Assembly (NCBI RefSeq): GCF_003790525.1
Contig: NZ_CP033635.1
Direction: 5' to 3' (one strand)
From: Escherichia coli
Lineage (GTDB): Bacteria > Pseudomonadota > Gammaproteobacteria > Enterobacterales > Enterobacteriaceae
Length of the DNA: 64,000 bases
The notes under the pieces were generated by a model, which was not told the origin of the DNA, did no database searches, and was given only the letters and a program-made list of their open reading frames with translations. Within the stretch, counting starts at the first letter, position 1. Each line of letters starts with the position of its first letter. Positions 11,764-17,718 of the stretch are shown in pieces. The translations under genes were made by a program, and so were the position numbers.

Positions 11764-14700
11764 ATGCAAAAGAAAACGTTATTATCCGCCTGTATCGCGC
11801 TGGCTTTAAGCGGATCGGGCTGGGCTGCTGACATTGATGATACAGATAGTGCAACTCGTCAGCGTAAGGAGACAAGGATACCCTGTCCGACCGCTCACTC
11901 CTCTGAAAAACTAAGTCCGCAACAACTAAAATCGCTCCCGTCTGAATGTTCTACAACCAATGACAACAACCTCTATTCCTTGATTGCCGTTGGCGCTACT
12001 TCACTAATCACCACTCTTGCAGTCCTTGAACTAAACCACGATGACGGTAACCACGCTCATTCCTCTGACAATCCTCCAGTACCGCCTGATGACGATAATG
12101 GCGGCAACACACCGGACGATGGCGGCAATACCCCTGACGATGGTGGGAATACTCCTGACGATGGCGGCAACACACCGGATGATGGTGGCAACACACCGGA
12201 TGATGGTGGCAACACACCGGATGATGGTGGCAACACACCGGACGATGGCGGCAATACCCCTGACGATGGTGGGAATACTCCTGACGATGGCGGCAATACT
12301 CCTGACGATGGCGGCAACACACCGGACGATGGCGGCAATACCCCTGACGATGGCGGCAATACCCCTGACGATGGTGGGAATACTCCTGACGATGGCGGCA
12401 ACACACCGGATGATGGTGGCAATACCCCAGACGATGGCGGCAACGTCACCCCGCCCAAAGAGCCTAAAATCTTCAATAACAATGTCACGTTCGACGAAGA
12501 TAAAGGCACGCTGAAAATTCGTAACGCCACCTTTACCTACAGCAAAAACACCGATGGAACTTATACCCTGACGGCTGGAGATGGCCGGACCACTGTTGTA
12601 CAAGGCTGGGATGTCGACACGGCTGCCAATACTGTAGAAATTACTGGCGTGAATACCCAGGGCGGTATGACGTGGCGTTACGGTAAAGACGGCATTATCT
12701 ATATCACTAAAACCGTCGGCGCAACGGTGGATGACCCCGCGAGCAGCAACGTATTTAACCTCAGCGATGCGGTGCTCACTGACCAGGGCGGTAATGCCGC
12801 GCTGAATGGCGCAACGGTGATTGAAATTAACGGCAGCAGGATCGTCCTTAATAACGACGGTGACATTTCTGCTACGGGAAAAGATTCTGTGGTTGTGGCG
12901 ATGACCGGAAACGACATTACCGTTAACAATAACGGCCATATGGTTGTCGATGGCGGCACCGCGGGCGTGGTTAACGGCGATCGTGCGATCCTGAATAACC
13001 GTGGTGATGCGGTGATCACTAACGGGGGCGCGGGTGTCATTGTGACGGGCGACAACGCGGTCATCAACAACACGGGGCAAAGCGATATTGATGGCGACAA
13101 CTCGGTATCGGTAAAAGTCGCAGGAAACGCAACCAGAATCAAAATGGAAGGCGGGCTCAACGTCAGCGGTGGCGCGCATGGCATTGATGCCACCGGTGAC
13201 AATAACGAAGTCAGCAACAAGGGCAACATTTCGGTGGTGGATGCGCATTCCACGGGCGTGCTGCTGAACGGCGATCGCGCGTCATTCGTTAATATGGGTG
13301 ATATTAACGTTAGCGGAGGTGCAGCGGACGATCACGCTATTGGTGTGCAGATTAACGGCGATAACAGTACCTTTATCAACGTTGGAGATTTAAATGCCGA
13401 CGACAGGGCGACCGGGGTGAAAATTACCGGTGACGCCAGCGACATTGCCCTGGCCGGGGCGATGCATGTCGGGGATTTTGCCTCCGGGCTGGAGGTGACA
13501 GGTAAGAACAATGACCTGTCGTTGTCCACCAATATGATGGATGTCACCGGGAAACAGTCCACCGGGGTGACCATTACAGGTGATGAAAATACCATTGATA
13601 TCACCGGTGATATGGTCGTTGATCAAAACTCTGTCGGGACGAAGATTGTTGGTGATCGCGTTTCGTTGCAACAGAAAGGTGATATTACCGTTAACGGTGC
13701 GGGGCACGGCGTTGAAGTCAGCGGTAGTAAGGCGACAATCAATAATCAGGGCAAACTGACCGTAAAAGATCAAGACTCAATCGGTATCGCTATCACCGGG
13801 GATGACGCGCAATTTACCACCGTGGGTGAGATTGATGTCTCGCTGAATGGTACGGGTGTTGCGATCAGCGGCGATCGTGAACAAGTGAATTTGAGCGGTG
13901 ATATAAATATCATTCAGGAGCGTGACGACAGCGGTACTTTCCAGGGCGGGACGGGCATCAGCATAATGAGCAACGACAGCAGCATGCTGTTGGCGGGAAA
14001 CATTAATGTGACGTCCAGCATAGGGGACCAACCGTCCACCTCACACCTGTCGTTAACCGGCGTTACCATCGGGGGGGAAAACAATACTGTCGATCTGCAA
14101 GGCGACGTCAATATTACTGTCGATTCGGGTTACCCGGGGGATGAAAACAGTCTTTACGGCGTGGTGGTTTCGGGGTCAAATAACATCATCAGCCTCGATG
14201 GTGGTATCAATATTTCCGGCGATAGTGGCGGACATGTTGTCAAAGGCGTGCAGGTAACCGGGAATAATACCGTCAATATTAGTGGTCATTCCGTAATGAA
14301 TACCCGACAGGTATTGGGAGCCTTCTCTTTGATTTCGGTGGCTGATGGCGGGAATGTCGTATTTGATGAAAATGCGATAACCGAGATCCAAAGTTCAGTG
14401 AGAAATACTACTGCCCCTCTATTTGTTGATTCATCGTTAATTGTTGCTAAGGGAAATCAGTCTGTTATTCAGAACAAAGGCATTATTAACACAACCGATG
14501 CCCAGGGATTAATGATGGCGAATTCGGGGGCGAAGGTTGTCAATGCCGGGGTGATTAATATCAGGCCAGATGCTGAATCACACAGTTTCTTTGCTGGAAT
14601 GCTGGCAAGAGGCGATGACTCGCAGGCAAAAAATGTCTCCGGAGGGACAATCAATCTGACATCCATTACCCAGCCTTCTTACGGCGGAGGATTTAGTGAA

Positions 14701-17700: not shown

Positions 17701-17718
17701 TTCAAGAAAACGTTCTAA
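11764..17718 (+). CDS. ydbA: AIDA-I-type autotransporter adhesin, intact
   Basis: 1984-aa ORF: signal peptide, PDDGGNT heptad array, long Gly/Asn/Thr-rich passenger, C-terminal beta-barrel-like domain ending NFKKTF. Confidence 0.88.
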   Translation: MQKKTLLSACIALALSGSGWAADIDDTDSATRQRKETRIPCPTAHSSEKLSPQQLKSLPSECSTTNDNNLYSLIAVGATSLITTLAVLELNHDDGNHAHSSDNPPVPPDDDNGGNTPDDGGNTPDDGGNTPDDGGNTPDDGGNTPDDGGNTPDDGGNTPDDGGNTPDDGGNTPDDGGNTPDDGGNTPDDGGNTPDDGGNTPDDGGNTPDDGGNTPDDGGNTPDDGGNVTPPKEPKIFNNNVTFDEDKGTLKIRNATFTYSKNTDGTYTLTAGDGRTTVVQGWDVDTAANTVEITGVNTQGGMTWRYGKDGIIYITKTVGATVDDPASSNVFNLSDAVLTDQGGNAALNGATVIEINGSRIVLNNDGDISATGKDSVVVAMTGNDITVNNNGHMVVDGGTAGVVNGDRAILNNRGDAVITNGGAGVIVTGDNAVINNTGQSDIDGDNSVSVKVAGNATRIKMEGGLNVSGGAHGIDATGDNNEVSNKGNISVVDAHSTGVLLNGDRASFVNMGDINVSGGAADDHAIGVQINGDNSTFINVGDLNADDRATGVKITGDASDIALAGAMHVGDFASGLEVTGKNNDLSLSTNMMDVTGKQSTGVTITGDENTIDITGDMVVDQNSVGTKIVGDRVSLQQKGDITVNGAGHGVEVSGSKATINNQGKLTVKDQDSIGIAITGDDAQFTTVGEIDVSLNGTGVAISGDREQVNLSGDINIIQERDDSGTFQGGTGISIMSNDSSMLLAGNINVTSSIGDQPSTSHLSLTGVTIGGENNTVDLQGDVNITVDSGYPGDENSLYGVVVSGSNNIISLDGGINISGDSGGHVVKGVQVTGNNTVNISGHSVMNTRQVLGAFSLISVADGGNVVFDENAITEIQSSVRNTTAPLFVDSSLIVAKGNQSVIQNKGIINTTDAQGLMMANSGAKVVNAGVINIRPDAESHSFFAGMLARGDDSQAKNVSGGTINLTSITQPSYGGGFSEYPVKWYFNTGYALLASNYGSVINEAGATINLHGAGTYGVSASKGTATNAGEINVDGFVPTVDENGNISDETYWQTNSVYLMGGGMLAGSTDTGNGDAKAVNTGTINVKNEGFGMLAMSGGTVVNQGTINLTADEGVTKQQDNQLFALGAIQRGLAINDQNGVININTDIGQAFYKDSTGTILNYGKINLFGNPMDESDSHMGVAPDDKDVLSELSGSGESISKTTTADGFIAVNDLANYGDETLNGDVTANGWIFNQPDASLTINGELSVNQGLENSGHLTTDLLTLNGAVSFFNEGEFSGSITGNSYQQNVVNTGEMTVTEDGHSLVNGSFLFFNEAGATLTNSGNAVTGGENAIIHVTRTGDSVSQVNRGTITAINGYSAIKTENTGSYSNGKWIWNTETGVINGINPAAPLVDLGRGYNFSNAGVINVQGDNAVGISGGITSYTVKLVNSGTINVGTEQGQLDGTNGEGLIGIKGNGKDTTINNTQTGVINVYADNSWAFGGQTKAIINNGEINLLCDTGCDIYAPGTTGTKNDHNGTADITVPEASTTPSQGNVPTPPADSNAPQLLSNYTIGTNSDGSSGTLSANNLVIGDNVSVNAGFSAGTADTTVVVNDVFKGENISGVDNIVSSTVVWTAKGSTDASGNVDVTMSKNAYTDVATDGSVSDVAKALDAGYTNNELYTSLNVGTTAELNSALKQISGSQATTVFREARVLSNRFSMLADAAPKMGNGLAFNVVAKGDPRAELGNNTEYDMLALRKTVDLSESQTMSLEYGIARLDGDGAQKAGDNGVTGGYSQFFGLKHQMSFDNGMNWNNALRYDIHQLDSSRSVAYGDVSKTADTNVKQQYLEFRSEGAKTFEPREGLKITPYAGVKLRHTLEGGYQERNAGDFNLSMNSGSETAVDSIVGLKLDYAGKDGWSANATLEGGPNLSYAKSQRTASLAGAGSQHFNVDDGQKGGSINSLASVGVKYSSKESSLNLDAYHWKEDGVSDKGVMLNFKKTF
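12085..12447 (+). repeat. in-frame tandem array of 21-bp units (1 degenerate 27-nt unit, 15 PDDGGNT, 1 PDDGGNV) inside ydbA
   Basis: Direct reading of codons cc(g/t) ga(c/t) ga(t/c) gg(c/t) gg(c/g) aa(t/c) ac(c/a/t) repeated head-to-tail; units differ only at synonymous positions. Confidence 0.95.

Follow-up and report, generated by a model that had tools for sequence, protein, structure and literature searches.

A deeply diverged, intact allele at the ydbA locus of Escherichia coli probably encodes a type Va autotransporter of the BigA/YdbA family

Background

The closest described relatives of the gene considered here are ydbA of Escherichia coli K-12 and bigA of Salmonella enterica. K-12 ydbA consists of two pseudogene fragments (ydbA_1/ydbA_2, b1401/b1405) with transposase genes of the insertion sequences (IS) IS2 and IS30 between them, flanked by paaY upstream and pdxI downstream; the split had been noted in a preliminary description of the present DNA and agrees with the K-12 annotation. 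In this study we examined a 64,000-nucleotide stretch of E. coli DNA (contig NZ_CP033635.1 of RefSeq assembly GCF_003790525.1; hereafter the window, with positions counted from its first letter), in which one long open reading frame (ORF), 11764..17718, occupies the same slot directly upstream of pdxI. We consider it likely that this ORF is intact and encodes a classical monomeric type Va autotransporter of the BigA/YdbA family, for which an adhesin or aggregation factor would be the likeliest role.

Published information on the family is sparse in functional terms. Salmonella papers give bigA only as a putative adhesin or as a pseudogene, and Celik et al. 2012 (PMC3419190) described the BigA passenger as AIDA-I-like and placed its barrel in group 6, together with NalP-type proteins. 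In E. coli, ~42% of phylogroup A had a full-length version of the ydbA autotransporter according to a pan-genome study (PMC4951805). A paper with a section on H-NS complex formation tabulates the spacer between paaY and ydbA of K-12 there as one of the AT-rich "promoter islands" (PMC3661553), and ydbA transcription was up in an rpoZ mutant (PMC5811629). The searchable literature yielded no functional study of YdbA or of enterobacterial BigA, so the wording "largely uncharacterised" in the preliminary description stands. Literature matches for "BigA" combined with E. coli turned out to be author-name false positives, and the Brucella "BigA" is a protein that we take to be unrelated.

Architecture of the autotransporter gene

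The ORF listing of the window gives 11764..17718 on the plus strand as one ATG-started frame of 1984 codons plus stop (5955 bp), and its translation contains no internal stops and ends in ...VMLNFKKTF. The DNA around the gene (6701 bp) is 100% identical to that of E. coli SMS-3-5 and ~20 other complete genomes, and the genomes in which the ORF is open and 100% identical come from humans, chickens, dogs, a pangolin and river water. Since the RefSeq record of SMS-3-5 carries at the same coordinates one intact coding sequence (CDS), WP_001170210.1, named "autotransporter domain-containing protein", with ydbH-ynbE-ydbL upstream and pdxI (ydbC)-ydbD downstream, the intact ORF is already part of public annotation. 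Hundreds of homologues of 1.9-2.0 kaa from E. coli, E. albertii and Salmonella align colinearly with the protein from end to end (100% of its length), which makes a hidden frameshift, the flaw that the preliminary description had named as potentially fatal, unlikely. Its claim of a single uninterrupted ORF is thus borne out by the ORF listing, the translation and the identical RefSeq CDS. Its contrast with K-12 stands as far as an intact gene is set against a split one, but an intact ydbA is nothing unusual, as many RefSeq genomes have one annotated. What the preliminary description noticed is thus genuine and not new: RefSeq contains the exact protein, Pfam and NCBIfam have models for the family, and full-length ydbA in many strains has been published.

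From the N- to the C-terminus, the protein consists of a signal peptide, a Cys loop, a hydrophobic segment, a His/Asp stretch, the (GGNTPDD)n repeats, BigA_N, beta-strand repeats, the BigA_beta sandwich, a linker and the barrel (Table 1). All three features of type Va proteins that could be tested from the sequence are present, namely a signal peptide, a C-terminal Pfam beta-domain and an aromatic C-terminal residue (Phe, as in the beta-signal). The signal peptide was read from the sequence without a dedicated predictor and is conserved across the family. Thus the parts listed in the preliminary description (signal peptide, repeat spacer, long passenger, C-terminal F) are all found in the sequence and the repeat array, and the domain search that it had proposed did return the autotransporter beta-domain at the C-terminus. 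An AlphaFold2 (AF2) model of the N-terminal 237 residues of P0067, which has the same allele with a naturally short repeat, was built from a 16-sequence alignment; in it BigA_N reached a predicted local distance difference test score (pLDDT) of 88-95. Homologues at 92-97% identity carry precomputed BigA_3rd (PF27417) and BigA_4th (PF27415) assignments, neither of which was reported by our Pfam search of the window protein. Identical copies bear the names "pectate lyase-fold" or "beta strand repeat-containing" from the Prokaryotic Genome Annotation Pipeline (PGAP). Neither Pfam nor NCBIfam gave a protease, lipase or toxin domain for the window protein, and phmmer with the whole protein against PDB sequences gave no matches. 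With the exception of the N-terminal module treated below, the gene is ordinary for an E. coli autotransporter.

Table 1. Features of the autotransporter gene and its surroundings in the window, and state of the gene in other E. coli genomes (aa, amino acids; TM, transmembrane; VNTR, variable number of tandem repeats; L numbers denote sampled loci, each with its own coordinates)
Feature	Coordinates	Strand	Remarks
Intergenic region, ydbL to autotransporter gene	11307..11763	+	presumed promoter/silencing region; allele-class-specific
Shine-Dalgarno sequence	11750..11756	+	GAGAGGG, 7 nt 5' of ATG; read directly off the sequence
Autotransporter CDS, BigA/YdbA family, type Va	11764..17718	+	identical to RefSeq WP_001170210.1 in SMS-3-5
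Sec signal peptide, aa 1-22	11764..11829	+	MQKKTLLSACIALALSGSGWA/AD; MQKK, hydrophobic core, GWA/AD (slash, cleavage site)
Cys loop	11884..11949	+	C41-P42...L58-P59-x-E61-C62; conserved in family
TM-like, marginally hydrophobic segment, aa 70-90	11971..12033	+	LYSLIAVGATSLITTLAVLEL; followed by His/Asp-rich stretch
In-frame tandem repeat (VNTR)	12098..12444	+	21-bp unit, 16.5 copies; encodes acidic Pro-containing spacer (GGNTPDD)n
BigA_N (Pfam PF25784), aa 237-315	12472..12708	+	small all-beta domain; E 5.8e-27
Passenger body, aa 316-1551	12709..16416	+	~1230 residues; periodic Gly/Asn/Asp-rich beta-strand repeats; mosaic, most variable part
BigA_beta sandwich (Pfam PF25783), aa 1552-1636	16417..16671	+	E 2.9e-24
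Autotransporter beta-domain (Pfam PF03797, aa 1758-1954), on to ...NFKKTF	17035..17715	+	E 7.6e-18
Intrinsic terminator	~17739..17775	+	GC-rich hairpin AACCGCAAC...GUUGCGGUU, then U-tract UUUUUUAUU
Intact allele, strain 20			1994 aa
Intact allele, GF131			1991 aa
Intact allele, FXCREC043			2163 aa
Intact allele, N12			2845 aa
Intact allele, Ecol_448	L013		2867 aa
Broken allele, TUM1586	L006 3568-4265		IS1 insertion; allele otherwise 100% identical to window
Broken allele, 730V1	L011 4119-4816		IS1 insertion
Broken allele, 52148	L012 2933-4095		IS3 insertion
Broken allele, K-12	L002 7024-9612		IS2 + IS30
Broken allele, eco-241	L005 2027-7847		frameshift
Broken allele, O157:H7 F6321	L010 4459-10116		two split ORFs

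Relation to K-12 ydbA and divergence among alleles

K-12 ydbA has the same overall layout as the window gene (signal peptide, Cys loop, hydrophobic segment, Pro/Asp spacer, BigA_N, repeat passenger and barrel), but the passenger sequences are far apart. When the K-12 fragments were aligned to the window protein, the N-terminal fragment showed 32% amino acid identity (BLASTP), with a conserved leader and an unrelated spacer, whereas the C-terminal fragment showed 69% identity over the last 632 residues and a much higher value over the last ~400. Residues ~825-1375 of the window protein have a significant match in neither fragment, and the spacer, which is (GGNTPDD)n in the window, is a short non-repetitive Pro-rich stretch in K-12. 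At the DNA level (megablast), the match to K-12 is confined to the last 21% of the query and reaches 89% there, and the upstream intergenic DNA aligns neither with K-12 nor with eco-241, which carries a third allele class. The upstream neighbors differ as well, being ydbL in the window and paaY in K-12. Over its full length the window protein is nearer to a Salmonella homologue (P0119, 57% identical over 100% of the length) than to K-12 YdbA. The window gene is a deeply diverged allele at the ydbA locus and not K-12 ydbA minus its insertions, so that the view of the preliminary description, which took it for the uninterrupted form of the K-12 gene, has to be given up. At window positions 10983-11763 there is no fea-tynA-paa cluster such as separates ydbL from ydbA in K-12-like genomes; ydbL and the autotransporter gene are direct neighbors here, with a 457-bp allele-specific spacer.

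Synonymous divergence (dS) of the window allele is ~1.9 against another intact E. coli allele (FXCREC043) and 2.0 against the Salmonella gene; the neighboring pdxI is 96.6-97.9% identical in genomes where pdxI alone matches. Divergence is also unevenly distributed along the gene, as seen in sliding-window identities to the window allele. P0102 is 42% identical in the leader and 93-97% in the passenger. In P0109 identity is ~50% as far as aa 1000 and >90% past aa 1100, and in P0111 and P0105 it falls from ~90% over aa 300-1100 to 23-42% over aa 1100-1600, where they carry a K-12-type block. This block pattern indicates intragenic recombination among old alleles. E. albertii alleles, by comparison, are 93-96% identical to the window allele. 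Hence the name ydbA masks several deeply diverged, recombining E. coli alleles plus null states, and because the alleles at this locus are so deeply diverged, results from one strain, or from a repaired K-12 pseudogene, would not be transferable to other strains.

State of the locus across E. coli and weight of the evidence

The genome search covered 5426 complete E. coli genomes, and loci were then sampled down the match ranking. At least 80% of the query was matched in 174 of the 5426 genomes; among the matches listed, only 33 cover the query from its first base, and the SMS-3-5-type allele is full length in ~0.6% of the complete genomes, with its passenger in ~3%. Carriers of this allele include multidrug-resistant strains from humans, poultry and the environment. 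The intact and broken alleles encountered are given in Table 1. LS45 (NZ_CP095448.1) has the same allele as the window at 100% identity, with a matched span 2 nt shorter and annotated as two CDS ("BigA" and "hypothetical protein"), and it probably carries a further independent frameshift. Separately, several YdbA-type autotransporters of 2698-2867 aa (P0113-P0120; in Ecol_448 at L013 1497-10100) are named "EntS/YbdA MFS transporter" by the NCBI pipeline, which looks like a mix-up of the names ybdA and ydbA propagating in RefSeq.

Several observations weigh against a working autotransporter adhesin at this locus. The gene has been inactivated independently at least six times in different lineages (IS1 twice, IS3, IS2 plus IS30, a frameshift and split ORFs). 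In the lower ~40% of the ranking the match is limited to the pdxI end, and in all three genomes inspected there (L014, L015 and L016) paaY abuts pdxI without the gene, so that the locus shows presence/absence as well as allele polymorphism. Being often inactivated and missing from ~40% of genomes, the gene is dispensable. On the protein side, the sole NCBIfam match is auto_BigA (NF033178, type "exception") over aa 526-1984, whose 1911.5 bits lie below the curated cut-off of 3400, so that by the NCBI rule the window protein is not BigA. The pertactin-like passenger domain anticipated in the preliminary description was not found in the Pfam search of the window protein, and neither was an AIDA domain, the matches being restricted to BigA-specific domains and the autotransporter beta-domain. 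Further, an AF2 model of the C-terminal 455 residues (6-sequence alignment), where a pore helix and a 12-stranded barrel would be expected, reached a pLDDT of 40.6 and was not used, a TM-like segment following the signal peptide is foreign to the textbook type Va layout, and the literature contains, as far as we found, no expression, localization or binding data for the window protein or a close homologue.

The independent disruptions in many lineages, including IS1 in a strain with the otherwise identical allele, the complete loss of the gene in ~40% of genomes, the very AT-rich upstream region, which is typical of silenced genes, and the 2-nt-shorter, split copy in LS45 would all suit a cryptic gene on its way out, that is, one that is silent and functionless and remains open merely because this lineage has not yet been hit, in which case its intactness would be biologically meaningless. 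We regard this explanation as unlikely. Against the 96%-identical allele of strain 20, the ratio of nonsynonymous to synonymous divergence (dN/dS) is 0.19 overall, with the lowest value in the barrel (0.02), an intermediate one for BigA_beta and the linker (0.16) and the highest in the passenger (0.31); against deeply diverged alleles it is 0.14-0.21. Such a gradient, with the exposed part evolving fastest, points to functional constraint rather than neutral decay and fits a functional autotransporter under purifying selection, although current expression is not thereby proven. The ORF is moreover open and identical over all 5955 bp in ~20 genomes from varied hosts and river water, and the repeat-length variants seen are all in frame. 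These patterns argue that the window allele has been maintained as a working gene rather than decaying neutrally.

The 21-bp repeat and the N-terminal module

The tandem repeat at the end of the leader is highly polymorphic. Among proteins and alleles with the same leader, the heptad is present in 1 to 16 copies and total lengths step by 7 aa, and one genome that is otherwise 99.7% identical is 231 bp (11 units) shorter than the window. Because the unit is 21 bp and in frame, the repeat rapidly alters the length of the spacer without switching the gene off. On/off phase variation through the repeat was considered and is ruled out by the 21-bp unit and by the observed lengths, which all lie multiples of 7 aa apart. 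The genome search reported "14 places per record", and this number follows the repeat copy number (2 to 15 places across allele lengths); since it tracks repeat length, the multiple places appear to be off-register self-matches of the 12098-12444 array rather than extra loci.

The module in front of the repeat is the one feature here that goes beyond a textbook explanation. In an alignment of 16 diverse sequences, C41, P42, L58, C62 and G77 are invariant. No other 19-mer of the protein is as hydrophobic as the one in the segment at aa 70-90 (mean Kyte-Doolittle 1.92, summed Hessa dG +0.4), and a Gly/Ala-rich hydrophobic 19-mer lies at the same position in 15 of 15 homologues examined, where it is by far the top of the hydrophobicity profile beyond the signal-peptide region. 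Across the family these 19-mers have mean Kyte-Doolittle values of 1.5-2.1 and summed Hessa dG of +0.4 to +3.6 kcal/mol, and because such values are marginal for membrane insertion, the segment can plausibly transit Sec. It is followed within window positions 11971-12097 (aa 70-111) by a His/Asp-rich stretch, NHDDGNHAHSSD, which appears as HHHH in Salmonella and HSHHH in others, and for which metal binding is conceivable from its composition. In every family member a Pro/Asp-rich spacer of variable repeats comes next. The "LSAC" close to the N-terminus could suggest a lipoprotein, a reading that we rejected because the hydrophobic stretch before it is too short (5 residues) and the GWA/AD cleavage site is conserved.

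A profile of the leader, made from the first ~110 residues of five diverged alleles and searched against 1.84 billion representative proteins, gave only 65 matches. All 15 of the longer matches that we inspected were BigA/YdbA-type autotransporters with the same leader layout, 14 of them complete and one truncated before the barrel. Possibly, although we rate the idea as quite improbable, this family-restricted module, with its disulfide-capable Cys loop and its spacer of variable length, has a task of its own at the passenger's distal tip instead of just filling space; it could, for example, insert into membranes or self-associate while tethered, with the repeat number setting its reach. If it were true, BigA/YdbA proteins would be mechanistically unlike plain beta-helix adhesins.

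Still more doubtful is an autotransporter whose passenger is no adhesin at all and acts as a membrane-acting or secreted effector through the conserved Gly/Ala-rich segment, since, for all that every family member has the Cys loop, the marginally hydrophobic, small-residue-rich segment of ~19 residues, the His/Asp stretch and the flexible Pro/Asp spacer at its would-be distal end, and that the module occurs only in this family, no toxin similarity was found by sequence or fold (Pfam, NCBIfam, phmmer against PDB, and Foldseek of the P0067 N-terminal 237-aa model against PDB, with nothing below E 0.26), the AF2 model was of low confidence in the leader and the hydrophobic segment (pLDDT 30-50), and a plain structural or chaperone-related role of the module is equally possible. 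The Helicobacter autotransporter toxin VacA has an N-terminal hydrophobic region to which the BigA/YdbA segment is loosely comparable, a comparison that rests on no homology.

Flanking sequences

The AT-rich upstream region and strong terminator noted in the preliminary description were both recovered. The 300-bp core of the ydbL-autotransporter spacer (11400-11699) has a GC content of 28%, as compared with 46-59% inside the gene, which suggests that the upstream region may be silenced by H-NS under laboratory conditions. It contains a weak sigma70-like site at 11510-11539; since the number of sites from a generic promoter scan did not exceed that in shuffled sequence, we claim no specific promoter. 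The spacer also contains an ORF of 16 codons (11405-11455, plus strand; MSYKIEFLRLLSVQVK) preceded by a strong AGGAGG site. This small ORF is identical in strain 20, overlaps no Rfam element and is too short for family searches.

Downstream of the gene, a 70-nt stretch spanning the terminator hairpin folds at -23 kcal/mol (z = -3.05 against shuffles). A generic terminator scan did not report the hairpin, probably on account of its loop-length limit. An Rfam scan of 10900-18100 gave a single match, a chance sub-threshold small nucleolar RNA, and no riboswitch or small RNA in the leader or trailer. Two antisense ORFs inside the gene (405 aa, 12031-13248; 269 aa, 16849-17658) have no NCBIfam family and no RefSeq annotation, and are treated as by-products of composition.

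Proposed function and comparison with known systems

If the protein follows the type Va pathway, which is well established, its signal peptide of 22 residues would direct it through Sec across the inner membrane, and the C-terminal beta-domain would be placed in the outer membrane by the beta-barrel assembly machinery (BAM). The passenger of ~1700 residues would then be threaded out C-terminus first and kept on the surface as a long beta-strand-repeat stalk, whose distal tip would be formed by BigA_N, the acidic Pro-containing repeat spacer and the N-terminal Cys-loop/hydrophobic module. The most likely role of such a structure would be that of a non-fimbrial adhesin or aggregation factor, and the in-frame 21-bp repeat would tune its reach and not its on/off state. 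That the gene is variably present, intact or broken is what might be expected if an exposed surface antigen brings a benefit in some niches and a cost in others. If the protein is indeed a working adhesin, the SMS-3-5-type allele would represent one more lineage-specific surface antigen and colonization factor.

Among known autotransporters, the AIDA-I-type adhesins of E. coli (AIDA-I, Ag43, TibA and EhaA among others) share with the window protein the monomeric type Va architecture and a long beta-strand-repeat passenger. We know of no counterpart in AIDA-type proteins of the N-terminal Cys-loop/hydrophobic/spacer module or of BigA_N. They differ further in that the window protein has BigA-specific rather than AIDA or pertactin matches in Pfam, and in that the BigA barrel falls in a different group (PMC3419190). 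The Salmonella homologue (L003 6001-11715) sits beside nadA-pnuC, whereas the window gene is at the ydbA locus; a small IS3-type HTH_Tnp_1 ORF (L003 5089-5274) lies just upstream of the Salmonella gene and hints at horizontal movement. In its set and order of domains, Salmonella enterica BigA (NCBIfam NF033178; Pfam BigA_N, BigA_3rd, BigA_4th and BigA_beta) is the same as the window protein and its homologues.

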